Shown here piece by piece: positions 17,575 to 63,761 of a stretch of DNA of 64,000 nucleotides. Location: contig VGEB01000003.1 of NCBI GenBank assembly GCA_016869435.1, forward strand, positions 1,008 through 65,007. Reading direction: 5' to 3'. The notes beneath the pieces were generated by a model. That model did no database searches. It was not told where the DNA came from and saw nothing but the letters and a program-made list of their open reading frames with translations. Numbering within the stretch: position 1 is the first letter of the stretch; every line of letters begins with the position of its first letter. The position numbers and the translations under genes were made by a program. The stretch comes from Alphaproteobacteria bacterium (lineage in GTDB: Bacteria > Pseudomonadota > Alphaproteobacteria > Rhizobiales > Beijerinckiaceae).

Positions 17575-19371
17575 ATGTCCGATTCGATCACTCCAGCCTT
17601 TCTTGGGGTCGAGCGTTCCGTGCTCGGCCGACGGTGGCGCGGGCGGCTCGACGCCAGAGGCGAGGCGCAGGCGCTCGCGCTGACGCAGGCGCATGGGATC
17701 GACGATTTTCTTGCGCGGGTGATCGCCGGGCGCGGCGTCACCGTCGCTGAAGCCGCTGGCTATCTCGATCCCAAACTGCGCGACCTCCTGCCAGACCCGT
17801 CCTCGCTGCGCGACATGGACGCCGCCACCGATCGGCTGGCGACTGCGATTGAATCAGGCGAGCAGATCGCCATTTTCGGCGACTATGACGTTGACGGCGC
17901 GTGTTCCTCTGCGCTGCTTATCGACTTTTGGCGCGCAGCCGGGGCGCCGGAGCCCCTTCTGCATATTCCTGACCGGATCGTCGAAGGCTATGGGCCGAAT
18001 GTCGAAGCGATCCGGGATCTTGCAGGCCGCGGCGCGACTCTTCTCGTCACCGTCGACTGCGGCGCCACGAGTCATGAGGCCTTCGCCGCCGCGCGCGCGC
18101 TCGGTCTCGATGTGATCGTTCTTGACCATCACCAGGCCCCGGAGGTGTTGCCCGAGGCGCTCGTCGTCAATCCCAATCGGCTCGACGAACTGTCGGGGCA
18201 GGGCGCGCTCTGCGCCGCGGGAGTGGTTTTTCTTGCGCTCGCCGGCCTCTCGCGGACGCTGCGGGCGCGCGGGTGGTGGCGCGAGGATCGTCCTGCGCCC
18301 GATCTCCTCGCCGCGCTGGATCTCGTCGCGCTGGCGACGGTCGCCGACGTCGCTCCGCTGGCGCGGCTCAACCGGGCGCTGGTCGCCAAGGGCCTGTTGG
18401 TGATGGGCGCGCGATCGCGGCCGGGCCTCGCCGCGCTCATGGACGCCGCCCGGCTGAACGGGCCGCCGCGCGCGCGCGATCTGGGATTCGCGCTCGGTCC
18501 ACGCATCAACGCCGGAGGGCGGATCGGCGACGCCGGACTCGGCGCGCGTCTCCTGACGCTCTCCGATTGCGTTGAAGCGCGTCGCATCGCCCTGGAGCTC
18601 GACCGGCTGAACGGCGAGCGTCAGATCGTCGAGCGGGCGACATTAGAGCAGGCGGTCGCCCTGGCCGACGCGCAATTGGCGAGATCCAACCGACTGTCAT
18701 GCTTAGTGATCGAAGGCGAGGACTGGCATCCGGGCGTCGTCGGATTGATCGCGTCACGTTTAAAGGAACGCTTTAATATTCCTACTTTTATAATTGCTTT
18801 TAATGGAGAATATGGAGCTTGTTCAGGTAGAAGTTTAAGTGGTGTCGATCTTGGTTCGGCGGTGCGGCGCGCGGTCGATCTGGGTTTGGCGATCAAAGGC
18901 GGCGGGCACGCGATGGCGGCCGGCGCGACGTTGACCCGCGACAAGGTTGGCGACTTTCGCGCCTTTCTCAACGAGGCGCTCGAAGCCGACGTCGCGGCGG
19001 CGCGCCTTGATGATGCGCTTGTGCTCGATGCGGCGCTTGCGGGACGAGGCGTCAGTCTCGATCTGCTGCGACGGGTCGAACGGGCAGGGCCCTTCGGGCA
19101 GGGCAATCCGGAGCCGCTGTTTGCCCTGCCCGAACAGCAGGTCGCATTCGCGCAGACTGTCGGGTCCGATCATGTGCGCGCTCGTTTGCGCTCGCGCGAT
19201 GGCGCGACGGTCGACGCGATAGCATTTGGCGCGGCAAGCTCGCCGCTCGGCGACGCCCTTCTTAGAGGAGAGCGCACTCAGTTTCATGTCGCGGCGAAGC
19301 TCTCCGGAAGTGTCTTTCGGGGCGTCGAGCGCGTCGAGACGCGAATCGTCGACCTCGCGCGCGTTCAATGA
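17575..19371 (+). CDS. recJ: Single-stranded-DNA exonuclease RecJ
   Basis: GDYDVDGACS, PDRIVEGYGPN, TVDCG, LDHH, ATVADV, FALGPRINAGGR, GGGHAMAAG and GPFGQGNPEP. Confidence 0.97.
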   Translation: MSDSITPAFLGVERSVLGRRWRGRLDARGEAQALALTQAHGIDDFLARVIAGRGVTVAEAAGYLDPKLRDLLPDPSSLRDMDAATDRLATAIESGEQIAIFGDYDVDGACSSALLIDFWRAAGAPEPLLHIPDRIVEGYGPNVEAIRDLAGRGATLLVTVDCGATSHEAFAAARALGLDVIVLDHHQAPEVLPEALVVNPNRLDELSGQGALCAAGVVFLALAGLSRTLRARGWWREDRPAPDLLAALDLVALATVADVAPLARLNRALVAKGLLVMGARSRPGLAALMDAARLNGPPRARDLGFALGPRINAGGRIGDAGLGARLLTLSDCVEARRIALELDRLNGERQIVERATLEQAVALADAQLARSNRLSCLVIEGEDWHPGVVGLIASRLKERFNIPTFIIAFNGEYGACSGRSLSGVDLGSAVRRAVDLGLAIKGGGHAMAAGATLTRDKVGDFRAFLNEALEADVAAARLDDALVLDAALAGRGVSLDLLRRVERAGPFGQGNPEPLFALPEQQVAFAQTVGSDHVRARLRSRDGATVDAIAFGAASSPLGDALLRGERTQFHVAAKLSGSVFRGVERVETRIVDLARVQ

Positions 19372-19647
19372 TGGCGATTAGACTGTGGCGCTTCGGCCAC
19401 AGCGCTCTTCAATCTTTCGCTGCGGCTGCGTTTAGATTGGGACTGTCGCATTTTGGTCTCATTTGAGACGCCTCCTGACGCAGGCGTAACTGCGTTTAAC
19501 GGCAAGTTCATACATCAACGAGAAACTCCTCGGGTCGCATTCGCGCGATGGTCCTGTTGCGCGAGAAAAAGGAGATGCGTCGCCAGTTAACGCGTCTCTC
19601 ATTGCAGATCCGCTGCGGGTCGACGCACGAGGGCAAGGACCGTCAGG

Positions 19648-20655
19648 ATGCGATCTGTCGTCTTCAAGAACGTTGTTTGTGCTCGGCGTGCGGTCTCCAG
19701 GCCAAAAATCCTCGTTAACCTGCTGTCTCTTGTCTGTCTGGGCGCGCTCGCCGGATGCTCATCCTCTGGGTCGCACAGGAGCGCAAGCCTCGGCGGTTTG
19801 GGTCAGATCGACCCGCGGTATGGCGTTCGCCCAAGCCCGCGGGTGATTGCAGAGGGCGAAGAAGTGCCGAAAGGCGGCGGCGCTTATATGGTCGGCAAGC
19901 CATACAAGATCGCCGGCCGAACCTATTATCCGAGCGAGAGGCCCTATTCGGCGGTCGGAACAGCGTCCTGGTACGGGTCGGATTTCCACGGGCGCCGCAC
20001 CGCTAATGGCGAAATTTTCGACAGGGCGTCGATATCGGCCGCTCACCCGACCATGCCTCTCCCCAGCTATGCCCGGATCACCAATCTGCGCAACGACCGT
20101 TCGATGGTGGTGCGCGTCAATGATCGCGGGCCTTATCATGGCGGGCGCGTGATGGACGTATCGCAGCGGGTGGCGGAAGCGCTCGATTTCCACGGCGTGG
20201 GGACGACGCGCGTTAAAGTGGATTGGATTGGCCGCGCCGAACTTGAGGGTGACGACGACGCCAAACTCCTGGCGACGCTGCGCGACGATGGCGCGCCCGC
20301 TCAGCTCGACGCCTCACCGTGGACAATGCTGGCTTCAGCAAATGAGGCGCCGGCGCAGACGGCGCGCAACGACGAAAGAGCCGAGGCCGCGGAGCTTTCG
20401 GCACGCATCGCCTATGAGAACGCTCAGGCCTCCAACGATCCCACGCTTGCCTATGCGGCTCAGGAAAAAGACGCGCCGCTGCCGCCGTCGCGCGAGCAAG
20501 CGGGGATTGATGAGGACACCGTCGCCTCGACCCGGAAGGCGAAGACAGCCGTCGCGCCGCTGCCGCCGATGCGGCCCGCGCATTTTGGCGCCCGTCAGGC
20601 TTCGGCGCGGGACGCCGTCCGGCAGGCGCTGATCTCCTCCGTCAGGACCAACTGA
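19648..20655 (+). CDS. rlpA: Septal ring lytic transglycosylase RlpA family lipoprotein
   Basis: Lipobox ALAGC, then GTASWYG..FHGRRTANGEIFD, SAAHPTMPLPSY and VRVNDRGPY. Confidence 0.93.
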   Translation: MRSVVFKNVVCARRAVSRPKILVNLLSLVCLGALAGCSSSGSHRSASLGGLGQIDPRYGVRPSPRVIAEGEEVPKGGGAYMVGKPYKIAGRTYYPSERPYSAVGTASWYGSDFHGRRTANGEIFDRASISAAHPTMPLPSYARITNLRNDRSMVVRVNDRGPYHGGRVMDVSQRVAEALDFHGVGTTRVKVDWIGRAELEGDDDAKLLATLRDDGAPAQLDASPWTMLASANEAPAQTARNDERAEAAELSARIAYENAQASNDPTLAYAAQEKDAPLPPSREQAGIDEDTVASTRKAKTAVAPLPPMRPAHFGARQASARDAVRQALISSVRTN

Positions 20656-20745
20656 CGGGATCATATCGAGATTGCAATTTTCGGCGCCGCGCGCCATCTT
20701 CTCCGCGCTCCGCCGCGCCGCGGCGTCAACAAGGGGAGCGCGCCC

Positions 20746-21933
20746 TTGCCGAAGTTTTCGGTGCGATGCCTGATCCTGGCCGTTCTTGCATGGGCAGGGC
20801 TGGGCGCCGATTTCGCCAGCGCCCAAGGTTTTCAGACAAGCGTCCCCAGCGCGATTCTGATCGACGCCGGGACCAATACGGTCTTGTTCGAGAAAGGCGC
20901 TGACGACTTCGCCAAGCCCGCTTCGACCGTAAAAATTCTCACGGCCGAGCTGATCTTTCAGGCCCTCGCCGAGGGCAAACTGAAGCTTGAAGACGAATTC
21001 ACCGTCTCCGAGCACGCCTGGCGCACCGGCGGGGCGCCGGCTGGCGGATCGGCGATGTTCCTGCCGCTCAACAGCAGCGCCCGCGTCGAAGATCTTGTTC
21101 GCGGTCTGGTGATCCAGTCGGGCAATGACGCCGCGATCACGCTTGCGGAAGGTCTGGCGGGCTCCGAAGAAGCTTTCGTGACGCGGATGAACAAGCGCGC
21201 CGCCGAGCTCGGCCTCGTTAAGTCGCGCTTTGGCAATCCGTGGGGCATGGACGGCCCCGATCAAAAAGTGACGGCGCGCGAAATGGCGAAGCTCGCTGCC
21301 CATATCGTCAAGACCTATCCGCAGTATTACGGCTATTTCGGCGAGAAGGAGTTCACCTGGAACAAAATACGTCAGCAGAACCGCAATCCGCTGCTCACCA
21401 TGAGCATCGGCGCGGACGGGCTCAAGACCGGCAATATCGATAAGGAAAGCGGCTATGGATTGGTGGGCTCCGCGACGCAGGACGGCCGGCGCCTCATCGT
21501 CGCCATTTATGGCGCGAAGTCTGCGAAGGAGCGGGCCGAAGAAGCGCGGAAATTGCTGCAATGGGGATTCCGCAACTTCGAAGAGAAGGAGCTGTTCAAA
21601 GCCGGCGAGCCGATCGGCCCGGCCCAGGTCTATGGCGGGACGCAGGGCTCCGTGGAGCTGACGGCCAAGGAAGACATCAAGGTGCTGTTGCCGCGCGGCT
21701 CGAATGAGAGGCTGATGGGCAAGATCGTTTACGAAGGTCCTGTGCTGGCGCCGGTTGAAGCGGGGGCGGCGGTCGGCCGCCTCGAAGTCAAGCGGGGCAA
21801 CGCCGTCGTGCTGGAGCAGCCGCTGCAAACCGCCGAAGCGGTCGAGCAGGGATCGCTTCCGCGCCGCGCCTTCGACGCCATTTACGAATCGGCTGCCGCC
21901 GCCATTCACCAGAAACTGTCCGGCAAGAAATGA
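20746..21933 (+). CDS. dacA: D-alanyl-D-alanine carboxypeptidase
   Basis: PASTVK (SxxK), QSGNDAA (SxN) and GLKTG (KTG). TTG start. Confidence 0.92.
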   Translation: MPKFSVRCLILAVLAWAGLGADFASAQGFQTSVPSAILIDAGTNTVLFEKGADDFAKPASTVKILTAELIFQALAEGKLKLEDEFTVSEHAWRTGGAPAGGSAMFLPLNSSARVEDLVRGLVIQSGNDAAITLAEGLAGSEEAFVTRMNKRAAELGLVKSRFGNPWGMDGPDQKVTAREMAKLAAHIVKTYPQYYGYFGEKEFTWNKIRQQNRNPLLTMSIGADGLKTGNIDKESGYGLVGSATQDGRRLIVAIYGAKSAKERAEEARKLLQWGFRNFEEKELFKAGEPIGPAQVYGGTQGSVELTAKEDIKVLLPRGSNERLMGKIVYEGPVLAPVEAGAAVGRLEVKRGNAVVLEQPLQTAEAVEQGSLPRRAFDAIYESAAAAIHQKLSGKK

Positions 21934-23674: not shown

Positions 23675-23679
23675 TTGTA

Positions 23680-23920: not shown

Positions 23921-25159
23921 CTAAATCCTATCCTTCGCGACCGCCTCTTCGAGAAGTTGCTGGACGACCGCGGGATCGCGCGGGAAGCCGGCGCGAATCC
24001 ATTCAGCTTGCAACAATTTTAGCACTTCGCCCAAAGCCTTGCCGGGCGCGACGCCGCGGGCGATCAGGTCCGCGCCCTTTATCGGAAAGGCGGGCGTCGG
24101 CGTTTCTTCGAGATAACGAGCGGCTTCGAGCCAATCGGCGGCATCCGCCGCCGCCGCGCTTTCTGCATGCGCAAGCGCCAGCGCGTCGGCGGCGGTGCGC
24201 GCGCCGCATAGGAAAAGCATCTCGCGCAGATGCGACGGCGGCGGCGGCACGTCGCGTCCGTGCAGCGGCGCAAGCGTTCGCGCCGCCGCCGCAAGCCGCG
24301 CGAATTCGTCGTTGGAGAGCCGCAGGCGGTCGCGCAGCCGCTCGGCGTCTTCGATCGTCAGCGCCGAGAAGGCCGCTAGGCGCAAGACCGCATCCGCGGG
24401 CCTGCCCATAGCCCTCTCGCGCTCGGCAAGCCGTTGCAGGCGCGAGGGATAGCCGATGCCGAGAATCACTTCGATGACTCCGGCGTGCGACATGGCGCGT
24501 AAAATCTCGGGCGCCCGGCGCGCGAGCATCAGCTTCATCAATTCGGCGCGGATGCGCTCGCGCGACAGTCGCGAGAGATTTTCCCGTGCAACAATCGACT
24601 CATGCAGGCCTTCGCGGTCGAACGGCCCTTCGCCATGGGAGGCGTTGAAGCGGAAAAAGCGCAATATGCGCAGGTAATCCTCGCGAATCCGCGTCGCGGC
24701 GTCGCCGATGAAACGGATGCGCCGCGCCTCAATATCCGCAAGCCCGCCCGTGTAATCGTGTATCTCTCCGTCGGGGGAAAGCGACAGCGCGTTGATGGTA
24801 AAGTCGCGCCGCTTGGCGTCCTGCTCGAAATCGCCGCCGAATCGAACCTTGGCGAAGCGCCCGTCGGTTTCGACGTCTTCGCGCAGCGTCGTGACTTCGA
24901 AAGGCGTTCCCGCGACGACGATCGTCACGGTGCCGTGTTCGAACCCCGTCGGCACGCCTTTGAGGCCGGCGTCGCGCGCGGCCACAAGGACGGCCTCGGG
25001 CAAGGCTGTCGTGGCGAGGTCGATCTCATGAGGCGGCAAGCCCAGGAGCGCGTCGCGCACCGCGCCGCCGACGACCCGCGTCTCGGCGCCGGTCCTGGCG
25101 AGCGCAGCGAACAGCGTCGCCAAACGCCGATCGTCGAGAAGTCTCTGCGCCGGGTTCAT
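23921..25159 (-). CDS. cca: CCA tRNA nucleotidyltransferase / poly(A) polymerase family
   Basis: VVGGAVRDALLG...EIDLAT, GFEHGTVT, FEVTTLRED, RRDFTINAL and IREDYLRILRFFRF. Start placed at 25159 (ATGA overlap). Confidence 0.92.
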   Translation of the reverse strand: MNPAQRLLDDRRLATLFAALARTGAETRVVGGAVRDALLGLPPHEIDLATTALPEAVLVAARDAGLKGVPTGFEHGTVTIVVAGTPFEVTTLREDVETDGRFAKVRFGGDFEQDAKRRDFTINALSLSPDGEIHDYTGGLADIEARRIRFIGDAATRIREDYLRILRFFRFNASHGEGPFDREGLHESIVARENLSRLSRERIRAELMKLMLARRAPEILRAMSHAGVIEVILGIGYPSRLQRLAERERAMGRPADAVLRLAAFSALTIEDAERLRDRLRLSNDEFARLAAAARTLAPLHGRDVPPPPSHLREMLFLCGARTAADALALAHAESAAAADAADWLEAARYLEETPTPAFPIKGADLIARGVAPGKALGEVLKLLQAEWIRAGFPRDPAVVQQLLEEAVAKDRI

Positions 25160-25413
25160 TCGAAACGGCCCGGCGTCAATTTTCCATTTTCGACATGGGC
25201 CGGCACATAGGCGCCCTGATTGAGCCCGGTGAGGCCGAACGTCACCACGCCGACGATGGCGATCAGGAGACCTGCGATCGTCAACAGCGAAACGATCCTG
25301 CCATGCCAGAGTTCGCGCACGAAGGGCCAGCGCCGCTGCAGCAAATGAAAAAGCGCATAGGCGACGAAAGGCGTGAGAAAAAGCAGGGCGGTTTCGACGA
25401 TTGCGCGCCACAT
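25156..25413 (-). CDS. DUF6111-like small membrane protein
   Basis: LFLTPFVAY, a TM segment and YVPAHVENGKLTPGRFE. This is the usual position upstream of the CCA enzyme. Confidence 0.8.
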   Translation of the reverse strand: MWRAIVETALLFLTPFVAYALFHLLQRRWPFVRELWHGRIVSLLTIAGLLIAIVGVVTFGLTGLNQGAYVPAHVENGKLTPGRFE

Positions 25414-25736: not shown

Positions 25737-26741
<1,005 letters not shown>

Positions 26742-33131: not shown

Positions 33132-33469
33132 TGTTTGCCATCGCGTTCGATTTGGTCGTCAGCGAAATCCAAATCCATTATGCGAAAGGTGTCGCGCAGG
33201 CCTATTCGGATATTCGCGACACGCTCTCCAAGTTCGAATTCGACTGGGTTCAGGGCAGCCTTTACGTGAGCAAGAACGAGGATTTGGCAAAATTGTTCTC
33301 CGCTATCATGGCGCTACGGAGCCTGCCTTGGTTTCCGCTTGCGGTGCGCGACATACGCGCCTTTCGCGTCGAGCAATGGTCCGACTTCACTCAAATGGTG
33401 AAGGGCGCGCTTCTCCTGCTAATCTCCCGCCATCTTGGAGATTCGCCTTGGCCAACTACCGCGCAATAG
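33131..33469 (+). CDS. vapD: VapD (Cas2-like) virulence-associated nuclease
   Basis: MFAIAFDL, AYSDIR..L, VQGSLY and VRDIRAFRVEQWSDFT. The C-terminal ~20 aa look like read-through. Confidence 0.85.
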   Translation: MFAIAFDLVVSEIQIHYAKGVAQAYSDIRDTLSKFEFDWVQGSLYVSKNEDLAKLFSAIMALRSLPWFPLAVRDIRAFRVEQWSDFTQMVKGALLLLISRHLGDSPWPTTAQ

Positions 33470-34584
33470 GTCTCATGTCCGGCACGTCGATGGACGGCGT
33501 CGACGTCGCGCTCATCGAAACCGACGGCGACGCCGCCGTCGCCTTCGGGCCGACGGGACATTACCCTTACAACGACGCCGACCGCGCGCTGCTGCGCAAC
33601 GCGCTCGCCGAGGCCGCGACGCTGGAGGACCGCGACGCGCGGCCGGGCGTGCTCGCCTTCGCCGAGCGCATGGTGACCGACCGCCACGCCGAGGCCGTGG
33701 AGACGCTGATCGGCGACAACGCCATCGATCCGGCGAGCGTCGATATCGTCGGCTTTCACGGCCAGACCGTGCTGCATCGTCCCAAGCAGGGATTGACGAT
33801 TCAGATCGGCGACGGGCCGGCGCTCGCGGCGCGTCTCGGCCTAGACGTCGCCTATGATTTCCGCGCCGCCGACATCGCCGCGGGCGGGGAGGGCGCGCCG
33901 ATCGTGCCCGTGTTCCATCGGGCGCTCGTCGCTGGCGGCGGGATGAAGGGCGAAGTGGCGCTCCTAAACATCGGCGGCGTCGCCAATGTCACCTATGTCG
34001 CCGACGGCGAGGAGCCGATCGCCTGCGACACCGGGCCTGGCAATGCGCTCATCGACGATCTGATGCTCCAGCGCACCGGCGCGCCGATCGACCGGCACGG
34101 CCATATGGCGGCGCGCGGCCGCGTCAACGAAGCGACGCTGCTCAAAATGCTGGCGCATCCGTTCTTCGATCAGGCGCCGCCGAAATCGCTCGATCGCAAC
34201 GCCTTCGCGCTCGACGCGGTCGCCAAGCTCTCGACCGAGGACGCCGCGGCGACGCTCACCGCCTTTACCGCGGCCTCGGTGCTGCGGCTTTTCCCGCATC
34301 TGCCGACTCAGCCGCAGCTGCTCATCGTCTGCGGCGGCGGCGCGCGCAATCCGATCCTCGTGCGCGAGCTCGTCATGCGCCTGCCGTGCAAGGTGACGAC
34401 GGCGGATGCGGTCGGCTGGTCGGCGGATTCGATGGAGGCGCAGGCCTTCGCCTATCTCGCCGCGCGGGTCTTGGAGGGGCTGCCGATCACCTTCCCGACG
34501 ACCACCGGCGCCCCGCAAGCCATGCCCGGCGGCGTGCTGGCGCGGGCGGAATCATCTGTCATTCCCGGCAGGCCGCAGGCCTGA
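33448..34584 (+). CDS. anmK: Anhydro-N-acetylmuramic acid kinase
   Basis: AIGLMSGTSMDGVD, GFHGQT, GGEGAP, LNIGGVAN, DTGPGNAL, GGGARN and EAQAFAYLA. TTG start at 33448 follows GGAG. Confidence 0.95.
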   Translation: MANYRAIGLMSGTSMDGVDVALIETDGDAAVAFGPTGHYPYNDADRALLRNALAEAATLEDRDARPGVLAFAERMVTDRHAEAVETLIGDNAIDPASVDIVGFHGQTVLHRPKQGLTIQIGDGPALAARLGLDVAYDFRAADIAAGGEGAPIVPVFHRALVAGGGMKGEVALLNIGGVANVTYVADGEEPIACDTGPGNALIDDLMLQRTGAPIDRHGHMAARGRVNEATLLKMLAHPFFDQAPPKSLDRNAFALDAVAKLSTEDAAATLTAFTAASVLRLFPHLPTQPQLLIVCGGGARNPILVRELVMRLPCKVTTADAVGWSADSMEAQAFAYLAARVLEGLPITFPTTTGAPQAMPGGVLARAESSVIPGRPQA

Positions 34585-36381: not shown

Positions 36382-38436
36382 ATGATCGAACCTGATCTCA
36401 CACGTCTCAAGGACGCGCCTGTTCCGCCGCCCGACGATGACGCCAAGCGCGTAGCGCTCGCGGCGGCGACAGCGGCATTCGAAAAAGGCGCAGCCGGCGC
36501 CCAAGGATCGGCGGCACCGCAACGTCTCAGTCACGCATCCACTCCAACGGAAGGGAAAAGGAAGATGCGTCAGACGTTTCATTTCAACCGTGCGCTGGCG
36601 GCCTCGATCGCCGTATTGATGATCGGCGCGCCCGCCGCTTTCATGCTTTCGCGCAACTATTCTTCGTCGGTGGGCGGAAGCGCATCCAATTTTCCGGCGA
36701 GCCTTTCCGCGCCGCCGGCCAAATTGGCCGTCGCCCCGCCGATGGAGGCTCGGTCCGAGCTTCAGCCGTCGCCGGCGCCAAGGGCAGACGTCGCGCGAGA
36801 AGAGATGGCGAAGACGGCGAGGAGCGCAGCAACGCTTGGCGGCCAAGTCGATGGCGTCGCCGCCGCCTTGCCGCCAGCGCGTCCCGTCGGCGCGGTTCAT
36901 GACGGCGCCAAACGGAAGCTGTCGCGATCCGCTCATGACGCGAGGTCGATCGCTGCGGTCGAAACAAGCGCCTCGCCGCCGATCGATAGACACGTTGCGA
37001 CGGAGAGCGAATTTCGCGACAGGTTCGATTCAAAGGAGATCAACCCCGTCAAAGTTGCGGCGACGGAGCCGGTCTCGACCTTTTCGATCGACGTCGACAC
37101 CGCCTCTTACGCCTTCGCCCGCCGCGCCCTTAACGCCGGGCGGCTGCCGCCCAAGGATTCGGTGCGGGTCGAGGAGTTCGTCAACTACTTCCCTTATAAC
37201 TATGCGAAGCCTGAGAGCGCGCAGACGCCTTTCAAGCCGACGATTACGGTGACGCCCAGTCCGTGGAGCGCCGGCAACCGCCTGGTTCATATCGCGATAC
37301 AGGGCTATGCGCTGCAAAGCGTCGAGCGTCCCCGCGCCAATCTCGTCTTTCTGATTGACGTGTCGGGCTCAATGTCGCCGGATGATCGGCTGCCGCTCGT
37401 CAAGAACGCGCTCCGAATGCTCGTCGACGAATTGAAGCCTGACGACACGGTCGCGGTCGTGACCTACGCTTCGGGTTCGGGCGTCGCTCTCGAACCGACC
37501 AAAATCTCTGACAAGGCCAAAATTCTGGCCGCGATCGACGCGCTCGGCGCGGGCGGCTCGACCGCCGGCGCGCAAGGCATTCAGGACGCCTACCGCCTCG
37601 CTGAGGCGAGTTTCGACAAATCCGCCGTCAATCGCGTGATACTTGCGACCGACGGCGATTTCAATGTCGGCGTCAGCGATCAAAGCGAATTGAAAGGGCT
37701 GATCGAAAGAAAGCGCGAGAAGGGCGTTTTCCTGTCCATACTCGGCGTCGGCAAGGGCAATTACAATGACGCGCTGATGCAGACGCTGGCGCAGAACGGC
37801 AATGGCGCGGCGGTCTATGTCGATAATCTCAATGAAGCGCGAAAGGCGCTTGTTGAGGAGGCGTCGTCGACGCTTTTTCCCATCGCCAAGGACGTGAAAA
37901 TTCAGGTCGAATGGAACCCCGCACGCGTATCCGAATATCGTCTCATCGGCTACGAGACCCGCGCGCTGCGGCGCGAGGATTTCAATAATGACAAGGTCGA
38001 TGCTGGCGATGTCGGCTCCGGCCACCGCGTCACCGCGATTTATGAAATTACCCCGGCGGACTCGGATAAGAAGCTTGTCGACGAACTGCGCTACGGAAAG
38101 CAAAAGGCGCCGGCGGCGGGACAGGCGAGCGCGGAAAGCGAGCTCGGTTTCCTGAAGCTGCGCTACAAGCTGCCGAAGGAAAACGCGTCGCGGCTCGTCA
38201 CCCAACCGATCGCCGACTCGCAGAGCGCCGAAAGCGTGGCGCGCGCGCCGGAGGACGTGCGCTTCTCCATCGCCGTCGCCGCTTTTGCACAACTGTTGAA
38301 AGGCGCGCCCTATCTCGGCAATTACGGCTATGACGACGTGATCGCGCTGGCGCAAAGCGCCAAGGGCGACGATCCATTCGGCTATCGCGCGGAATTCGTC
38401 AATCTGGCGCGCCTCGCCAAGTCGCCGCAGCCTTGA
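36382..38436 (+). CDS. Membrane-anchored vWA domain protein (YfbK-like), probable anti-sigma
   Basis: Short N-terminal domain and one TM (ASIAVLMIGAPAAFML), then STFSIDVDTASY, LIDVSGSM (MIDAS), ILATDGDFNVG and YRLIGYETR. Confidence 0.9.
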   Translation: MIEPDLTRLKDAPVPPPDDDAKRVALAAATAAFEKGAAGAQGSAAPQRLSHASTPTEGKRKMRQTFHFNRALAASIAVLMIGAPAAFMLSRNYSSSVGGSASNFPASLSAPPAKLAVAPPMEARSELQPSPAPRADVAREEMAKTARSAATLGGQVDGVAAALPPARPVGAVHDGAKRKLSRSAHDARSIAAVETSASPPIDRHVATESEFRDRFDSKEINPVKVAATEPVSTFSIDVDTASYAFARRALNAGRLPPKDSVRVEEFVNYFPYNYAKPESAQTPFKPTITVTPSPWSAGNRLVHIAIQGYALQSVERPRANLVFLIDVSGSMSPDDRLPLVKNALRMLVDELKPDDTVAVVTYASGSGVALEPTKISDKAKILAAIDALGAGGSTAGAQGIQDAYRLAEASFDKSAVNRVILATDGDFNVGVSDQSELKGLIERKREKGVFLSILGVGKGNYNDALMQTLAQNGNGAAVYVDNLNEARKALVEEASSTLFPIAKDVKIQVEWNPARVSEYRLIGYETRALRREDFNNDKVDAGDVGSGHRVTAIYEITPADSDKKLVDELRYGKQKAPAAGQASAESELGFLKLRYKLPKENASRLVTQPIADSQSAESVARAPEDVRFSIAVAAFAQLLKGAPYLGNYGYDDVIALAQSAKGDDPFGYRAEFVNLARLAKSPQP

Positions 38437-40615: not shown

Positions 40616-41770
40616 ATGGCCCGCGTCTATCTCGACCACAACGCAACGTCGCCTCTGCGCCCGCAGGCGCGGGCGGCGATGCTCGATGCGCTGGAGACGC
40701 TCGGCAATCCGTCTTCGGTCCACGCCGAGGGAAGGGCGGCGAAGACCCTGCTCGAAAACGCGCGAGCGGCCGTCGCCCGAGCGATCGGCGCGCCGCGCCG
40801 CGGCGTCGTCTTCACCAGCGGCGCGACCGAGGCGGCGAGCCTGGCGCTGTCGCCTGGGCTGCGTCGAGAAAGCGACGCCGCGCCGATTGACGCTCTGCTG
40901 GTCGCCGCCGGAGAGCATTTCTGCGTCTCGCAAGGCCATCGCTTTCCGCATGAGGCTATGGAAACCGTTCCGCTGACCCGCGACGGGACGCTCTCGCTCG
41001 GATCGCTGGAGGCGGCCTTGGCGCGGCGCTCAGGTCAGCGCGTGATGCTGGCGTTGCAGGCCGTCAACAATGAGACCGGCGTCATTCAGCCGGTCGCCGA
41101 GGCGGCGGCGCTGGTCCATGCGGCGCATGGCGTCGTCGTCTGCGACGCCGTGCAAGCCGTCGGCCGGCTCGAAACGACATTTGCGACGACGGACGCCGAC
41201 ATATTGTTCTTTTCCTCACACAAGCTCGGCGGGCCGATGGGCGTCGGCGCGCTCGCCTTTCGCGACGACGGCCTTCATCTGGAAACGCCGATGCTGCGCG
41301 GCGGCGGCCAGGAGTTCGGGCGCCGGGCCGGGACGGAGAACGTCGCTGGAATCGCCGGATTTGCGGCGGCCGTGACCGCAGCGACCGCCGACATGGCGGC
41401 TGAGGGGCCACGGCTTGCCGATTTGCGCGACGCCCTGGAGCGACAAGTCTTGAAAGTCGCCCCGGACGCCCGATTCTACGGTGCAAGGGCGCCGCGCGCG
41501 CCGAACGCCAGCGCATTCGCGATTCCAGGCCTTGCCGCGCGCACTTTGCTGATGGCGATCGACCTAGAGAATGTCGCGCTTTCGGCGGGCTCGGCCTGTT
41601 CTTCGGGCAAGATGACGGAATCTCACGTTCTTGCGGCGATGGGCGCGGCGGAAAGGGAGGCGCTGAGGGCCAGTTTGGGTTGGTCTTCGACGCGAGAGGA
41701 TGTAGAACAGTTTGGAAAGGTTCTTGCACGTGTCGTGGATCGTATGAGGTCGCGGCATTCCGCCGCCTAG
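40616..41770 (+). CDS. Cysteine desulfurase (NifS/IscS class)
   Basis: YLDHNATSP, GNPSSVH, FTSGATEA, NNETGVIQP, SSHKLGGP, RAGTEN and SAGSACSSG. Confidence 0.93.
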   Translation: MARVYLDHNATSPLRPQARAAMLDALETLGNPSSVHAEGRAAKTLLENARAAVARAIGAPRRGVVFTSGATEAASLALSPGLRRESDAAPIDALLVAAGEHFCVSQGHRFPHEAMETVPLTRDGTLSLGSLEAALARRSGQRVMLALQAVNNETGVIQPVAEAAALVHAAHGVVVCDAVQAVGRLETTFATTDADILFFSSHKLGGPMGVGALAFRDDGLHLETPMLRGGGQEFGRRAGTENVAGIAGFAAAVTAATADMAAEGPRLADLRDALERQVLKVAPDARFYGARAPRAPNASAFAIPGLAARTLLMAIDLENVALSAGSACSSGKMTESHVLAAMGAAEREALRASLGWSSTREDVEQFGKVLARVVDRMRSRHSAA

Positions 41771-47733: not shown

Positions 47734-50460
47734 TTGGCCGACGACGAGACCAAAAAAGACGACTCCGACAAGCCCGGCTCCGACATAAAGCCGGTCTCGA
47801 TCACCGACGAGATGAAGCGCAGCTATCTCGATTACGCGATGAGCGTCATCGTATCGCGCGCGCTGCCGGATGTCCGCGACGGCTTGAAGCCGGTGCATCG
47901 GCGCATCCTGTTCTCGATGCACGAGAACGGACATACGCCGGACAAGGCCTATGTTAAGTCGGCGCGCATCGTCGGCGACGTGATGGGTAAATACCACCCG
48001 CATGGCGACGCGGCGATTTACGACGCGCTGGTGCGCATGGCGCAGCCCTTTTCGATGCGGCTGCCGCTCATTGACGGCCAGGGCAATTTCGGTTCGGTCG
48101 ACAATGATCCGCCGGCGGCGATGCGCTACACCGAGTCTCGGCTCGCGAAGCCTGCGCTGGCGCTGCTCGAAGATATCGACGAAGGGACCGTCGACTTTCA
48201 GCCCAACTATGACGGCAAGGAGCATGAGCCAACAGTCCTGCCGGCGCGCTTTCCCAATTTGCTGGTCAATGGCGCCGGCGGCATCGCCGTCGGCATGGCG
48301 ACGAACATACCGCCGCATAATCTCGGCGAGGTGATCGACGCCTGCATCGCCATGATCGATCGCCCTGACATCACCGTCGCAGAGTTGATGGAGATCGTGC
48401 CGGGGCCGGACTTCCCGACGGCGGCGACGATCCTCGGGCGCGGCGGCATCCGCAACGCCTTCGCGACGGGCCGCGGGTCGATCATCATGCGCGCCAGGTC
48501 CGAGATCGAGACTCTGCGCAAGGACCGCGAAGCGATCATCTTCACTGAAATTCCCTATCAGGTGAACAAGGCCGCGCTGATCGAGCGCATCGCCGAGCTG
48601 GTGCGGGAAAAGAAGATCGAGGGCGTCGCCGATCTGCGCGACGAGTCCGATCGCGACGGCATGCGCATCGTCGTCGAACTGAAACGCGACGCTGTCGCCG
48701 ATGTCGTTCTGAACCAGCTGTGGCGCCACACCGCGCTGCAGTCGAGCTTCCCCGTCAATATGATCGCGCTGAACGGCGGGCGGCCGGAGCTGATGACGCT
48801 CCACGACGTGCTGCGCGCCTTCGTCGATTTCCGCGAGACGGTCGTCACCCGGCGCACCAAATTCCGCCTCGCCAAGGCGCGCGACAACGCCCATCTGCAG
48901 GTCGGCCTCGCCATCGCCGTCGCCAATATCGACGAAGTGATCCGCCTCATCCGCACCTCGCCGGACGCCGCCGCGGCGCGCGAGGCGCTGATGGCGCGCG
49001 AATGGCCGGCGAAAGACATGGCGCCGCTCGTCGAACTGATCGCCGATCCGCGCCACAGGCTCAGCGACGAGGGCGCGATCCGGCTTTCGGAAGCGCAGGC
49101 GCGCGCCATTCTCGATCTGCGTCTGCAACGGCTGACCGCGCTCGGCCGCGAAGAAATTTCCGAAGCTTTGAACAAGCTCGCCGCCGAAATCGCCGATTAC
49201 CTCGACATTTTGCGTTCGCGCGAACGTCTCTTCGGCATCGTCAAGGAAGAGTTGCTGGCGGTGAAGGACGCACACGCCACGCCGCGCCGCACGCAGATCG
49301 TCGAGGCCGACGGCGAGGTCGAGGACGAGGACCTGATCGCGCGCGAAGACATGGTGGTCACAGTCTCGCACGCCGGCTACATCAAGCGCGTGCCGCTCTC
49401 GACCTATCGCGCGCAGCGGCGTGGCGGCAAAGGCCGATCCGGCATGCAGACGAAGGAGGAGGATTTCGTCCACCGGCTCTTCGTCGCCAATACTCATACG
49501 CCGGTTCTGTTCTTTTCCTCGCTCGGCAGAGCTTACAAGGAAAAGGTGTGGCGACTGCCGCTGTCGGCGCCGCAGGCGCGCGGCAAGGCGCTCGTCAATC
49601 TGCTGCCGCTCGAGCAGAATGAGCGGATCACCACGATCATGCCGCTGCCCGAGGACGAGGAGAGCTGGGCGACGCTCGACGTGATCTTCGCGACGACAGG
49701 CGGAACGGTGAGGCGCAACAAGCTCTCGGATTTCGTCGACGTGCGCCGCAACGGCCTCATCGCCATGAAGCTCGACGCGGGCGAAGCGATCGTCGACGTC
49801 GCGACCGCGACCGACCGCGATGACGTGCTGCTGACGACGCGCGACGGACAATGCATCCGCTTCGCCGTTCCGGAAGTGCGCGTCTTTCAGGGGCGCACCT
49901 CAATGGGCGTGCGCGGCGTGGCGCTGGGGTCCGACGATCGCGTGATCTCGCTCTCCATTCTCAATCATTTCGACGCGTTGAGCGAGGAGCGCACCGCTTA
50001 TCTGAAGCGCGCCAATGCGCTGCGCCGGCGCATGGGCGAGGACGTGTCGCCAGAGGCGGGGAGCGAGAGCGAAGAGGCGACCGCCGTCGAACTGTCGGAT
50101 ACGCGTTTTTACGAGATGCAGGCGGCCGAGCAGATCATTCTCACCGTCTCCGAGAACGGTTACGGAAAACGTACGAGCTCTTACGAATATCGTACAACTG
50201 GACGCGGCGGCAAAGGCATCGTCGCGATGGCGGTGAACGCCAGGAACGGCAAGCTCGTCGCTTCCTTCCCGGTCGCCCACGGCGACGAAATCATGCTGGT
50301 GACCGACGGCGGCCAGTTGATCCGCTGCCCGGTCGACGGCATCCGCATCGCCGGGCGCGGCGCTCAGGGCGTCATTGTTTTCGACACCGCGGAAGATGAG
50401 CGCGTCGTCTCCGTCGAACATATTGGCGACGTCGGCGACGGCGAGGACGCCCAGAGCTAA
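47734..50460 (+). CDS. gyrA: DNA gyrase subunit A
   Basis: [43 protein letters not shown] and the GyrA-box QRRGGKG. TTG start. Confidence 0.98.
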
Positions 50461-51639: not shown

Positions 51640-53199
51640 ATGCCTGAGCGTCCTCCCTACATGATCACGACCGCCATTCCCTATGCGAATGGCGCGCCGC
51701 ATATCGGCCACGCCTATGAACGCATCGCCACTGACGCTTTCGCCAGGTGGAAGCGGCTCGACGGCTATGACGTGCTGTTCGTTACCGGCATGGACGAGCA
51801 TGGCCAGAAGATGCAGCGCACGGCCGAGAAGGAGGGGCTGACGCCGCTGGCGCTCGCCGACCGCACCGCCGCGCAATTCGCCCGCATGGGCGAAGCGCTC
51901 AACGCGCGCGCCGACGACATCGTGCGCACGACGCAGCAGCGCCATAAGGAGACGGTGCTCGAAATTTGGCGGCGGATGGCGGCGAACGGCGATCTCTATT
52001 TGTCCAAATACGCCGGCTGGTATTCGGTGCGCGACGAAGCCTATTACGACGCGGACGAACTGACCGAGCGCGATGGCAAGAAATTCGCGCCAACGGGCAC
52101 GCCGGTAGAGTGGGTGGAGGAGGAGAGCTGGTTCTTCAAACTGTCGGCCTATGCCGAGAGGCTGCTGGCGCATTACGAGGCGCATCCGGAATTCATCACG
52201 CCCGAGCACTACCGGAATGAGATCGTCGCTTTCGTGAAGCGGGGACTGACCGACCTCTCGGTCTCGCGCACGACCTTCGACTGGGGCATCGACATTCCGC
52301 CGAGCGCGGAGACCGGCGCCAAGCATGTGATGTATGTCTGGGTTGATGCTCTTACGAATTACGTAACGGCTACCGGATTCCTTACGGAAGACAGAAACAA
52401 GGCGCGGTTCTGGCCCGCCGACGCTCATGTCATCGGCAAGGACATCACTCGCTTTCATGCCATCTATTGGCCTGCATTTCTTATGTCGGCGGGCGCGCCT
52501 TTGCCCAAACAGATCGTCGTGCACGGCTTCCTGTTTTCGCGGGGCGAGAAAATGTCGAAATCGGTCGGTAATGTCGTCGATCCGATCGATCTCGCCGAGC
52601 GTTATGGCGTCGATCAACTGCGCTACTTCTTCCTGCGGGAAATTCCCTTCGGCCAGGACGGCAATTATTCGCACGAGGCGATCGTCAATCGCATCAACGC
52701 CGATCTCGCCAATGATCTCGGCAATCTGGCGCAGCGATCGCTCTCGATGATCGCCAAGAATTGTATGGGCGCCGTACCGCGTAAACATGCGCTGACAAAC
52801 GCCGACAATGAGATTCTGGCGAAGGCGGCGGATGCGCTGGCGAAGGCGCGCGCGGCGATGGAGGAATACGCGCCGCATCACGCGCTCGCGGAAATCTTCC
52901 GCGTCGTCGCCGAGGCCAATCGCTATTTCGCCGCGGAGGAGCCCTGGGCGAAGAAGAAGACCGATCCAGCGCGCATGGAGACGGTCCTCTACGTCACCGC
53001 CGAGACGCTGCGCCGGCTGGCGATTCCCTTGCAGCCGTTCATGCCCGATTCCGCCGGCAAGCTGCTCGATCTCCTGGACGTAGGGCCGGACGAGCGCGAC
53101 TTCGCGCACGCGGGCGAAGCGAACGCGCTCCAGGAGGGTGCGCCGCTGCCGCCGCCGACGCCGATATTCCCGCGATTCGTGGAGGAAGAGGCGATCTGA
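51640..53199 (+). CDS. metG: Methionyl-tRNA synthetase (short form)
   Basis: [14 protein letters not shown] (HIGH), [30 protein letters not shown] and KMSKS. Confidence 0.97.
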
Positions 53200-58424: not shown

Positions 58425-58932
58425 CGTCCGGGACCGCGATGCAGAGCCTATCGTTTAGTTCCATAATATCGATTATGCGAATCACGGACGAGCGTTCCGC
58501 CGTTTCGCCGTCGTCCCCGTTACGCCGCCCACGCAATCGCGCGCGGACGCCCGCCGATGGAGTGTGGCCCGCGACGCCGTAAAGCTTTTGCACGGCCGAT
58601 GCGGCGGGCGCATTGCCGACCGGCGCCGAAAATCTACTGCGCGTCTGATCTAAGGTCCTGCAAACGCAAACATTCCTCCCGAGCCACGACATCGGGAGGC
58701 GGCCCTCAAACCGTGGCGGCTGTTTGGATTTTTAGATCGACCCATGGAATTTTCTGGCCTTCCGGGGCCAAACTCTGGTAAAAGGCTCGCTGCGCGGGAC
58801 TATATGGCATTCAAGAGCACATCATCGTCGTTTGCGAACGGGCGCTTTTTTTGCGGCCCGAACGTAGACGCCTGGGCGCACTAAGGTTGGCATAGCAGTC
58901 TTGCCTTATTTGGCGGAGACGAGCAGGTAGAC

Positions 58933-59601: not shown

Positions 59602-59675
59602 TCGGGCGCTGCCCGCACTGCGCCGCCTCCTCCTTGCGGGGAGAGCGGCGTTTTCTTTTTGGGGGGTCAAGACCC

Positions 59676-60497: not shown

Positions 60498-60516
60498 TGC
60501 GCGGCGCATTTGATCG

Positions 60517-61896
60517 CTACGACGCCGCTTTCCGGCGCCGCGCGCGAGAACCGCGAACGATTTCAGCTTGCGGAAAGCGCTTGGCGAGGCCGTCCGAGCG
60601 CTCCGGATCGACGCGAACCATGAGATGAACGCCGCCCTCAGGCAGCGCTTGGCGCTCGAGCACTTCGGTATGGGCGTGAAGCCAGGCGAGTCCCGCGCCG
60701 TCGGCCGCGTCCACGTCGAGTTCAAACCGAATGCGCCCCGCCGCAAGCTTCTCTTCGATTCGCGCCGCCAGTTCGTCGAGGCCCTGCCCGGTCAATGCAG
60801 ATACGAGCGTCGGCCGCCGTCGAGGCTCGATCCCGCGCGCGGCCAGCCGAAGCGCCGACAGCCGTTCCGGATCAAGCGCGTCGATCTTGTTCCAGACCTC
60901 CAGAATTCGGCCCTCGCCTTCGCCTTTGAGACCGAGTTCGTCGAGGATCGCCTCCACGTCTTTCGCCTGCGCCTCCCAATCTTCGTGCGAAACGTCGCGA
61001 ATATGGAGAACTACGTCGGCGAGGGTCACTTCTTCGAGCGTCGCTCGAAAGGCCGAGACGAGCATCGTCGGCAGATCGGAAATGAATCCCACCGTGTCTG
61101 ACAGAAGGATGCGGGCGCCATGCGGCAGTTTGATCTGACGCAGCGTCGGATCGAGCGTCGCGAAAAGCATATCCTCGGCCAGAACTTCCGCCCGCGTCAG
61201 TCGATTGAACAGCGTCGACTTGCCGGCGTTGGTGTAGCCGACGAGCGCGACCACCGGATAGGGAACATCGCGCCGGGTCTTGCGATGCAAAGCGCGGGTG
61301 CGCTTCACTTTGTCGAGATCATGCTCGATGCGCCGCATCCGCTCCTCGATCAGGCGGCGGTCGGTTTCGATCTGCGTTTCGCCAGGGCCGCCAAGAAAGC
61401 CGAAGCCGCCGCGCTGACGTTCGAGATGGGTCCAGGAGCGCACCAGTCGCGATTTCTGATAGGCGAGATGCGCAAGCTCGACCTGCAGCGCGCCCTCCTT
61501 GGTGCGGGCGCGCTCGCCGAAGATTTCGAGAATGAGCCCAGTACGGTCGATGACCTTGGCGTCCCAGGCCTTTTCGAGATTGCGTTGCTGCACCGGCGAA
61601 AGCTGGCAATCCATGCTGACCAGCGCCGCGTCCTTCGCCTTGACGATTTCTGCGATCTCCTCGACCTTGCCCTTCCCGAGGAAAGTGGCCGGTCGGACCT
61701 CATTCAGCGAAATTGCCGATTGGCCGACGACATCGAGGTCAATCGCCTGGGCGAGGCCAACCGCCTCCGCGAGGCGCGCCGCCGGGTCGCGGGTGCGCGC
61801 GGCTCCGCCCTGGGCCAGATAGGGTCCGACAACCAACGCCCTGGCGGCGGCCGCCTTCGAGGCCGCGCCTTTTCTTGCTTCGCTGTCCGCCCTCAA
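60517..61896 (-). CDS. hflX: GTPase HflX
   Basis: GKGKVEE, DRTGLILEIF, GPGETQIETDRR, VGYTNAGKSTL, LFATLDPT, DTVGF and NKID. TTG start inferred. Confidence 0.95.
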   Translation of the reverse strand: MRADSEARKGAASKAAAARALVVGPYLAQGGAARTRDPAARLAEAVGLAQAIDLDVVGQSAISLNEVRPATFLGKGKVEEIAEIVKAKDAALVSMDCQLSPVQQRNLEKAWDAKVIDRTGLILEIFGERARTKEGALQVELAHLAYQKSRLVRSWTHLERQRGGFGFLGGPGETQIETDRRLIEERMRRIEHDLDKVKRTRALHRKTRRDVPYPVVALVGYTNAGKSTLFNRLTRAEVLAEDMLFATLDPTLRQIKLPHGARILLSDTVGFISDLPTMLVSAFRATLEEVTLADVVLHIRDVSHEDWEAQAKDVEAILDELGLKGEGEGRILEVWNKIDALDPERLSALRLAARGIEPRRRPTLVSALTGQGLDELAARIEEKLAAGRIRFELDVDAADGAGLAWLHAHTEVLERQALPEGGVHLMVRVDPERSDGLAKRFPQAEIVRGSRARRRKAAS

Positions 61897-61900
61897 TCGC

Positions 61901-62164
61901 CTACCGTTGCTTCTCGGCCTGCCCGTCGTCGTCGCCCGGCTCGAACATTTGTATGGGGTGTCCGGGCATGATCGTCGAGATGGCGTGCTTGTAAACGAGC
62001 TGGGAATGCCCGTCTCGCCGCAGCAACAGGCAAAAATTGTCGAACCAGGTGACGATTCCCTGGAGCTTGACGCCATTAACGAGGAAGATGGTGAGCGGGA
62101 CTTTGTTCTTCCTGACGAAATTCAAAAATGTATCTTGCAGATTTTGCGAACGCTCTGACGACAT
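61901..62164 (-). CDS. hfq: RNA chaperone Hfq
   Basis: [27 protein letters not shown]...FDNF and [13 protein letters not shown]. Confidence 0.97.
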
Positions 62165-62396
62165 CGGCTGTCCTGTTCTGTTTTTTAGCCGAGCGGAATT
62201 GACGCCGCCCCCAAGGGATCGTTCTTCTTTTTTCGCCGCCGTGTTCATTAGAGCCTTTCAAATGACGAAGCGCAAGGCGCAACCCAGGCCGGCGACGCCG
62301 CGAATTGATCAAAATCATCGTTGATAAAGCCCCGCCAGCCGAAGCGCGGCGCTTCATGCATTACATTACTTTTATATCGTATGTTTATGTTTCCTA

Positions 62397-63761
62397 TCAC
62401 TCTACCGAGAGCGACTTGAGCTTTCGGTGTAAGGCCGAGCGCTCCATGCCGATGAACTCGGCCGTGCGGGAAATATTCCCAGAAAATCGATTTAGCTGCG
62501 CGACGAGATATTCGCGTTCGAAAACTTCCCGGGCTTCTCGAAGAGGCAGGCTCATCAATTTTTCGCCGCGCACGCCCGCAGGCGTCGCCGGGACGAGTTC
62601 GCCGACGTCGGCGGGGAGCATTTCCGCGGTTATCGTCGCGCCAGGATCGCCCGACGTCAGGATCATCAGCCGCTCCACATTGTTTTTTAACTGCCGAATA
62701 TTGCCGGGCCAGTCGTGCAATTGCAGGACCGCGAGCGCGTCTTCGGAGATTCTCCGGCGCGGCATGCCGGAGGCGAGCGACATGTTCTCCATGAAATATT
62801 CGATGAGGGCCGGAATGTCCTCGCGCCGCTCCGCGAGCGACGGCACCCGGATCGGCACCACGGCGAGCCGATGGAACAGATCTTCGCGCAGCGTTCCCTC
62901 CTCGATCGCCGAGGCCAGATCGCGCGCCGACGAGGAGATGATGCGCACGTCGACCTGGACCTTGTTCGATCCGCCGACCCGCTGGAAAGTCTGGTCGACC
63001 AGCACGCGCAGGATTTTCGCCTGAGTGTCTTTCGGCATGTCGGCGATTTCGTCGAGGAACAGCGTTCCGCCATGGGCCTCCTCGAGCGCGCCGATCTTTC
63101 GCTCGCCGTCCACGCCTTCGCGTCCAAACAGCTCGATTTCCATATTTTCCGGCGTGATCGTCGCGGAATTGATGACGACGAACGGTCCTCCGGCCCGGCT
63201 TGACGCCTCATGGATGCAGCGCGCCGCGAGTTCCTTGCCCGTACCCGGCGCGCCGGTGATCAACACGCGGGAGTTCACCGGGGCGACCCGGCCGATGAGC
63301 TGCTGCAGTTGATGCGCCGGCGGAGAATTGCCGACGATGCGATCGAACGCCCCTGCCCGCTGCCGCAAGGCGGAAAGTTCACGCCGCAACTGGTAGGCCT
63401 CGAGCGCGCGTTCAGCGACGAGCACCAGCCGATCAGCCTTGAAGGGCTTCTCGATGAAGTCGTAAGCGCCGATCTTGATGGCGCTGACCGCGGTTTCGAT
63501 ATTGCCGTGGCCGGAGATCATGACCACTGGCAAGCCTTTGTGCTGCTTCTGCACCTGTTCGAGCACCTGGAGTCCGTCGAGCCGAGACCCTTGCAGCCAG
63601 ATGTCGAGAAAAACGAGGTGCGGTCGCCGGCCGGCGATCGCGGCGAGCGCTTCGTCGGAATCTTTGGCGGTACGGACTCCATGTCCCTCGTCGCTGAGAA
63701 TTCCGGCGACGAGCTCTCTGATGTCCTCTTCATCGTCGACAATTAAAATATCGGTGGCCAT
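62397..63761 (-). CDS. ntrX: Response regulator NtrX
   Basis: Receiver LDIWLQGS, AAA domain GAPGTGKE with ELFGRE (no GAFTGA), WPGNIRQL and HTH ERSALHRKLK. Confidence 0.95.
   Translation of the reverse strand: MATDILIVDDEEDIRELVAGILSDEGHGVRTAKDSDEALAAIAGRRPHLVFLDIWLQGSRLDGLQVLEQVQKQHKGLPVVMISGHGNIETAVSAIKIGAYDFIEKPFKADRLVLVAERALEAYQLRRELSALRQRAGAFDRIVGNSPPAHQLQQLIGRVAPVNSRVLITGAPGTGKELAARCIHEASSRAGGPFVVINSATITPENMEIELFGREGVDGERKIGALEEAHGGTLFLDEIADMPKDTQAKILRVLVDQTFQRVGGSNKVQVDVRIISSSARDLASAIEEGTLREDLFHRLAVVPIRVPSLAERREDIPALIEYFMENMSLASGMPRRRISEDALAVLQLHDWPGNIRQLKNNVERLMILTSGDPGATITAEMLPADVGELVPATPAGVRGEKLMSLPLREAREVFEREYLVAQLNRFSGNISRTAEFIGMERSALHRKLKSLSVE

Follow-up and report, generated by a model that had tools for sequence, protein, structure and literature searches.

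An AT-rich island in the recJ gene of Methylocystis, conserved across the genus

The recJ locus and its AT-rich island

The window analysed here is a stretch of 64,000 nucleotides (contig C3, positions 1008-65007) from an assembly of 209 contigs (3.155 Mb, or ~3.16 Mb; 62.9% GC). The host genome is that of a Methylocystis, a methanotroph of 63% GC. Its recJ gene encodes a single-stranded-DNA exonuclease and contains an island of ~100 bp in which the GC content falls to ~27% and most codons end in A or T (Table 1). Solved RecJ structures (PDB codes: 8y30, 5f54, and 2zxo) match the protein, whose database homologues have 598 amino acids, and the DHHA1 domain, in which the island lies, covers residues 380-474. 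An initial annotation of the window, made from the sequence alone, had proposed that short patches of A/T-ending codons recur on conserved motifs of its housekeeping genes. The hand counts on which that proposal was based (Table 1) proved to be exact and in frame.

Maximal segments of A/T-ending codons were scored in 2485 open reading frames (ORFs) of the genome and compared with 20 synonymous shuffles per gene. The best segment of the genome is the recJ island, with a score of 28.9 (null maximum, 15.8) and a gene-wide scan-corrected p of <0.0005. It is the sole patch whose A/T-ending run exceeds chance genome-wide in this genome alone. It is also the 60-bp window with the lowest GC content (27%) among genes of normal GC content at third codon positions, and the 17-codon stretch with the rarest codons among 1857 genes (-1.07 versus -0.84 for the runner-up). 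An unbroken run of 24 A/T-ending codons extends from 18772 to 18843, and the rarest codon of the genome, TTA (1.2% of Leu codons), occurs twice in the island together with AGT, AGA, ATA, TGT, and TCA.

In the lineage of the window genome and G001, further AT-ward changes have led to the most AT-rich version of the island in the genus. A change of Gly to Cys (TGT) ahead of SGRS is found in both genomes, and ATA ATT, ACT, and GCT are found in the window genome.

For a comparative test, the syntenic regions of three progressively deeper relatives (G010, G005, and G004) were used; columns with A/T-ending codons in all genomes were scored, and the labels were permuted within amino-acid classes. Among the 20 genes (7456 codons) in this four-genome test, two clusters only were above the null. 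The core of the recJ island had a score of 65 versus a null maximum of 12.7, and a weaker cluster in the gene for cysteine desulfurase (6 of 11 columns) had a score of 15.9 with a family-wise p<0.002.

Table 1. Features of the window: recJ, its island, and the other patches of A/T-ending codons.
Feature	Position	Strand	Remarks
recJ, single-stranded-DNA exonuclease gene	17563-19371	+	DHH, DHHA1, and RecJ_OB domains by Pfam
AT-rich island in recJ	18754-18855	+	Codons 398-431, inside the DHHA1 domain, over the GSGRS motif; 31/34 A/T-ending
Conserved island core, FNIPxFxIAFNGExGxxSGRSLS	18772-18840	+	20/23 columns A/T-ending in the window genome, G010, G005, and G004
Class-V aminotransferase (cysteine desulfurase) gene	40616-41770	+	Pfam PF00266
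Weaker conserved A/T-ending cluster, C-terminal end of the cysteine desulfurase gene	41672-41731 (core 41693-41725)	+	13/20 A/T-ending
gyrA patch	50158-50202	+	11/15 A/T-ending; shallow, clade-specific
metG patch 1	52342-52395	+	11/18 A/T-ending; shallow, clade-specific
metG patch 2	52447-52482	+	8/12 A/T-ending here, 0-3/12 in every relative including G001; private, noise
ntrX patch 1	62472-62495	-	7/8 A/T-ending here, 6/8 in G001; private to the lineage of the window genome and G001
ntrX patch 2	62679-62702	-	5/8 A/T-ending, 0-4/8 in relatives; noise

A DNA search of 30 relatives and subsequent alignments revealed the same AT-rich block in every member of the genus. The Methylocystis genomes read, 12 at first, rose to 18 and finally to 38 through protein-guided retrieval, and all 38 carry the island, including members in which the surrounding part of RecJ is just 56-64% identical. 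The core pattern TCNGGWAGRAGYTTAARYGGNGTNGA was matched in 41 of 185,579 species genomes. All of the named ones belong to Methylocystis or Methylocystaceae, and the unnamed ones are metagenome-assembled genomes (MAGs) labelled as Alphaproteobacteria only. Three finished isolate genomes are among the matches: M. parvus M6-2022 (complete), Methylocystis sp. JAN1 (complete), and a scaffold of M. rosea SV97. The island is absent from ten outgroup genomes, which represent five other genera of the same family as well as other families and use ordinary GC-rich codons at this position (e.g. GGC TCG GGC CGC TCG GTC), and a DNA search with the patch in 300 other genomes of the order gave no real match.

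The presence of the island in relatives and in finished genomes rules out an artefact of assembly as well as a recent import. Chimeric assembly or polishing, one of the origins offered by the initial annotation, is refuted by the occurrence of the block in independent assemblies of other species, including the three finished genomes. Overall, the recJ island is a real, old, and derived character common to the genus. Gene-level annotation and screens for horizontal transfer do overlook such sub-genic islands, as the initial annotation had pointed out.

In two fragmented MAGs, G015 (contigs C498/C390) and G354 (contigs C450/C408), the recJ match falls on two contigs which break at or beside the island. 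These breaks suggest that the AT-rich island hampers short-read assembly.

Selection, origin, and possible role of the island

Pairs of genus members agree at synonymous A/T third positions in 75% of cases within the patch, compared with 32.5% outside it in the same gene fragment; in pairs from the deepest clades, the respective values are 77% and 28.5%. For synonymous G/C third positions, identity is 49% within the patch and 59% outside. The identity of A/T-A/T pairs at 4-fold sites is 79% within the patch versus 64% outside, and nucleotide identity is thus moderately constrained too, beyond composition. Several codons of the core are nearly fixed in the 36 crown genomes (TTT in 35, GGT in 33, TTA in 32, TCA in 31, and AGA in 29), and TTT, GCT, TCA, GGT, AGA, AGT, and TTA are each retained in 25-35 of them.

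The shift is not confined to third positions. In the core, the GC content at codon positions 1 and 2 is 0.45 (0.39-0.50) in the genus versus 0.64 (0.54-0.70) in the outgroups; in the rest of the region it is 0.62 in the genus versus 0.63 in the outgroups. The amino-acid replacements in the island are all toward AT-rich codons (R/Q to N, R/K to I, A to S, L to F/I, and V/I to L). Therefore, the pressure appears to act on the nucleotides and to go beyond the speed of codons. Taken together, these comparisons show that purifying selection at the nucleotide level keeps the island AT-rich, which was unforeseen in the initial annotation.

The origin of the island can be approached through two basal lineages. 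In a tree based on a RecJ fragment of ~190 amino acids with the patch masked, G349 and G373 form the sister group to all other Methylocystis; the support values are 0.935 (genus), 0.933 (crown), and 0.965 (the pair). Their recJ loop is 12 codons longer and contains a decayed AT-rich copy as well as an intact GC-rich copy of the GSGRS motif. The AT block of G349 aligns with the crown consensus without gaps, with 57 of 73 positions identical, up to TGTTTAAGTGGCG; this is followed by a GC-rich stretch of 36 nt, CAACAGCGATAGGCTCGGGGCGCAGCATCGCGGGCG, and then by TCGAT. The 36 nt are flanked by GGCG repeats and encode ATAIGSGRSIAG, which resembles the native motif of the outgroups, and the AT-rich copy of the motif has degenerated to SSSSSCLS. 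Removal of the 36 nt between the two GGCG repeats of G349 yields the exact crown sequence. The borders of the island are sharp.

This hybrid, in which the AT block adjoins a native-like GC-rich GSGRS motif, argues for a single ancient short-patch insertion. The origin of the recJ island was ancient and probably a single event in the stem lineage of the genus, and one ancient short-patch recombination is, from the sequences compared, a plausible source of the block. In the simplest and most likely scheme, an AT-rich homologous or ectopic fragment would have been spliced into recJ at the base of the genus, next to the native motif. The result would have been a tandem motif in two codon 'dialects', a state which would still be visible in the two basal lineages. 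Afterwards, the crown lineage would have lost the native 36 nt, and the basal lineages would have let the AT copy decay.

As for its role, the island would be an element within the coding sequence which acts at the level of DNA or RNA. Its RNA would be an unstructured, AU-rich stretch built from the rarest codons of the genome, on which ribosomes would slow down; an RNase or an AT-binding nucleoid protein could also land on the island. For the account as a whole, i.e. a single origin in the stem lineage, selection at the nucleotide level, and an embedded DNA or RNA element, we estimate a probability of about 0.6. A narrower proposal can be put forward only tentatively: the recJ island may be a functional element of a new kind, defined by its composition, i.e. 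a module of AT-rich DNA or AU-rich RNA of ~70-100 bp, which entered a conserved catalytic motif in a single short-patch recombination and was then put to use, e.g. as a nucleoid-protein pad, an RNase entry site, or a rare-tRNA-dependent gate on RecJ synthesis. It may belong to a broader class of AT islands, lineage-specific and so far undescribed, in housekeeping genes of GC-rich bacteria.

A number of observations weigh against this account. With respect to the origin, the direction of the 36-nt indel is based on two basal genomes and on the tree of ~190 amino acids, and it is conceivable that the GC-rich 36 nt were instead re-inserted in the basal clade. The protein encoded by the patch looks native to the family: its NGE loop is common to G288 and G196, and amino-acid identity in the patch is no lower than in the flanks. 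Because the amino-acid sequence still looks native, the island may also have arisen in situ under selection. A donor was not found in the 185,579 species genomes with the TCNGGWAGRAGYTTAARYGGNGTNGA pattern; a protein search restricted to the region was filled by Methylocystis; and among 1.84 billion representatives, a profile search recovered first Methylocystis-like sequences and, after these, only ordinary RecJ of the Hyphomicrobiales type, again with no donor. Among viral contigs, the one match, in an unrelated protein on a contig of 39% GC, was a 20-mer due to chance, and the host genome itself has no donor either.

With respect to the role, Rfam recognised no family in 18500-19800 and gave only sub-threshold chance matches outside the patch. 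The patch contains no sigma-70-like promoter, and a promoter and terminator scan was empty there. No conserved RNA structure was predicted on either strand (alifold, 0 kcal), the z-score of the single sequence being +0.47. The genome has no second copy of the island and no complementary partner resembling a small RNA; the matches were chance 11-13-mers, mostly to the GC-rich flanks. The island has no parS-like motif. Furthermore, CtrA (TTAA-N7-TTAA) and sigma-54 motifs were absent from the island by eye.

A narrower alternative is a pure translational pause, in which a position-conserved cluster of rare codons slows ribosomes within DHHA1 for co-translational folding and the identity of the nucleotides is irrelevant. 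The rarity of the codons in the island, the richest in rare codons of the whole genome, and the documented existence of conserved rare-codon clusters within domains (PMC5438181) are in favour of it, and the cluster in the cysteine desulfurase gene agrees with it. However, the AT shift is also seen at non-synonymous positions, the 4-fold sites conserve the identity of A or T and not rarity alone, and outgroup RecJs of the same fold do without such a cluster. In addition, the low-GC clade (G009 and relatives), in which ~50% of all codons are A/T-ending, retains these nucleotides too, even though the codons in question are less rare in its genomes. Since the island is genus-specific, its nucleotide identity is conserved, and its non-synonymous positions are shifted, a pure pause is rated below the broader reading of selection on nucleotides and is considered unlikely.

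Another alternative is that the island is a neutral relic, i.e. an old horizontally acquired patch which has yet to drift to the composition of the host. An abrupt, lineage-specific origin and the hybrid state in the basal lineages would fit with this. However, A/T third positions elsewhere in recJ turn over fast and those of the patch are retained genus-wide, contrary to neutral drift toward the host composition, and neutral A/T sites would be expected to be lost most readily where the pressure is toward GC. A neutral relic is therefore very improbable.

Other patches in the window and in the genome

Pfam also supports GyrA, MetG, the NtrX-type sigma-54 activator, and HflX as they had been named in the initial annotation. 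The cluster at the C-terminal end of the cysteine desulfurase gene is a milder conserved cluster of the same kind as the recJ island and is genus-wide. The window genome and all 11 other Methylocystis tested have 10-14 A/T-ending codons out of 20 in this patch, versus 3 and 7 of 20 in two outgroups. GAT GTA GAA does not vary, and next to it TTT/TTC GGA/GGC ... CTT GCA is mostly retained. In the window genome alone, the gene-wide scan-corrected p is 0.11.

The remaining patches are shallow or noise. In gyrA, the A/T-ending codons are common only to G001, G014, G017, and G012, and partly to G008, and deeper Methylocystis have GGC TAC GGC AAG CGC ACC TCG at this position. The patch has a gene-wide scan-corrected p of 0.001, is not significant genome-wide, and was not recovered in the four-genome test; its score of 11.7 is at about rank 28 in the genome, where the null expects ~1 segment with a score of at least 12 and ~7 with at least 10. 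The first metG patch has 9-12 A/T-ending codons out of 18 in the nearest clade only and 0-7 in deeper genomes, and for both metG patches the gene-wide scan-corrected p is 0.69. In the first ntrX patch, other genus members of normal GC content have 1-3 A/T-ending codons out of 8 (scan-corrected p 0.07); in the second, shuffling at the fixed site gives p=0.12 and the gene-wide scan-corrected p is 1.0. The low-GC genome G009 has 6 of 8 at both ntrX sites, matching its background of 48% A/T-ending codons. The gyrA and first metG patches are young fluctuations at the clade level, and the second metG and the ntrX patches are due to chance. The weaker hints in tsaD, in gyrA at ~49490, and in hflX, which had been offered with the remark that they might be noise, have a gene-wide scan-corrected p of 1.0 each.

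The window-wide pattern of the initial annotation is thus reduced by the four-genome test to one extreme island in recJ and one moderate cluster in the cysteine desulfurase gene. The genome-wide scan against a null, which that annotation had suggested, upholds recJ and none of the other patches: gyrA stays below the null maximum, and the cysteine desulfurase, metG, and ntrX patches are outside the top 60 segments.

In a sample of 393 orthologues (135,434 codons) from the genome, four real internal clusters were found: recJ (score 55), the cysteine desulfurase gene (16), rsmG (12.8), and a gene for a beta-eliminating lyase (12.0). About 1% of the sampled genes thus carry a conserved A/T-ending cluster, and recJ stands alone in strength. 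The cluster in rsmG (gidB; C5:32410-33048, codons 111-116, outside the window) is a parS site, GCTGTTTCACGTGAAACA, which is conserved in G010. Since the scan recovers this known embedded site, it detects DNA-level elements within genes, and rsmG serves as a positive control. The lyase, which is tryptophanase-like in the appearance of its sequence (C12:33007-34386), has its cluster at codons 129-142, just over the null; AAT ATC GAA TAT GT. ... ATT GAT TTA is common to G010.

Several apparent clusters were rejected. At 25160-25366 (5' end of the ORF at 23921-25411 on the - strand) and 33385-33423 (5' end of the ORF at 33328-34584 on the + strand), the local amino-acid identity is low (0.32-0.42), and these stretches are most likely upstream non-coding or other-frame sequence taken in by a too-early start codon. 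The cluster at 36475-36579 belongs to an ORF which, from 36352, over-extends a vWA-type gene, and its A/T-rich upstream stretch is non-coding; an AAGGAAG ahead of an ATG at ~36565, which is conserved in G010, appears to mark the true start. Three extra clusters in a two-genome test were likewise ORF over-extensions, and most other high scorers in the genome scan were over-extended or wrong-frame ORFs.

A further explanation is that short patches were recombined, recently or recurrently, with distant AT-rich homologues at many conserved motifs, or that the assembly is chimeric. The sharp borders, the position of the patches on conserved motifs, and the later appearance of the gyrA and first metG patches within one clade would be in line with it. 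On the other hand, all relatives, including finished genomes, carry the same recJ codons, an AT-rich donor was not found, and the patches other than recJ are within the null expectation in this genome alone. Comparatively, just recJ and the cysteine desulfurase gene stand out, and conserved clusters are as infrequent in the sampled genes as described above. This explanation is even less probable than a neutral relic. Of the repeated short-patch recombination proposed in the initial annotation, the ongoing process is not supported, as relatives have the same codons in both the recJ and the cysteine desulfurase patches, a finding which that annotation itself had named as decisive against its proposal; a single ancient recombination at recJ remains plausible in view of the AT block adjoining the GC-rich motif in the basal lineages.

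A co-conversion scar of a former homing intein or homing endonuclease in the GSGRS motif is the least probable of the explanations considered: the site is indeed a conserved motif of a catalytic domain, but the recJ match has no intein-sized gap in 75 of 78 Methylocystis genomes, split matches occur where contigs end or at adjacent breaks, the recJ matches of 17 other genomes are contiguous, and the synonymous conservation is left unexplained. A burst of AT-biased error-prone synthesis, as the initial annotation had considered, has no support, as the differences from the outgroups mix transitions and transversions on one strand (codon tables read by eye, with no formal count) and the later conservation would be unexplained. 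A burst of deaminase activity was rejected on account of the same mixture of changes.

A dif-like site, GATTCGCATAATCGATATTATGGAACT, is found at 58456-58483 of the window on the - strand, in an intergenic gap which is AT-rich. The site differs from the 18-nt dif core by 3 mismatches, and 0.01 such matches would be expected by chance. The island itself has no dif consensus. The cumulative GC skew peaks at ~52-56 kb of the window, which probably spans the replication terminus. No tRNA was found in the window by a tRNA scan.

Significance and comparison with known systems

The central message is one of selection and not of mosaicism: in a 100-bp stretch of a gene for DNA repair, synonymous sites have stayed frozen in spite of strong GC pressure over the whole history of the genus. 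Should the effect under selection lie at the level of DNA or RNA, the island would be an accessible model of 'hidden' codes in the coding sequences of GC-rich bacteria, and the basal lineages, which have both copies of the motif, would provide a built-in natural experiment. From a practical point of view, caution is advised in the codon optimisation of methanotroph genes and in the assembly of MAGs, as contigs of two MAGs break at the island.

Three known systems can be compared with the island. As in parS within rsmG (gidB), nucleotide constraint overrides codon preference in the recJ island. Unlike parS, the island is 70-100 bp long and non-palindromic, contains no known motif, and is defined mostly by its composition.

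Short-patch illegitimate recombination at microhomologies has been described (10.1101/2023.11.22.568220). Like products of this kind (SPDIR-like), the recJ island would be a tract of <100 bp with sharp borders which replaces or extends the resident sequence, and the basal recJ genes show a junction resembling a microindel bounded by a 4-nt repeat. Unlike the process described there, the event in recJ appears to have been a single one at the base of the genus and not ongoing, its donor was not found, and its product has been under selection since.

Among described categories, position-conserved rare-codon clusters come closest to the recJ island. Within domains, synonymous rare codons form clusters which are conserved in position among homologues above chance (Chaney et al. 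2017, PMC5438181), and the recJ island is, in the same manner, a run of the rarest codons at a fixed position within a structural domain. It differs from such clusters in that it occurs in one genus only and is absent from sister genera with the same fold, and in that it conserves the identity of codons and nucleotides and shifts amino acids toward AT-rich codons. Rarity alone is not the conserved property, as identical codons are found in 25-35 of the 36 genomes. It is also extreme in size, with 24 consecutive A/T-ending codons in the window genome and 20 of 23 columns of its core A/T-ending in four genomes.

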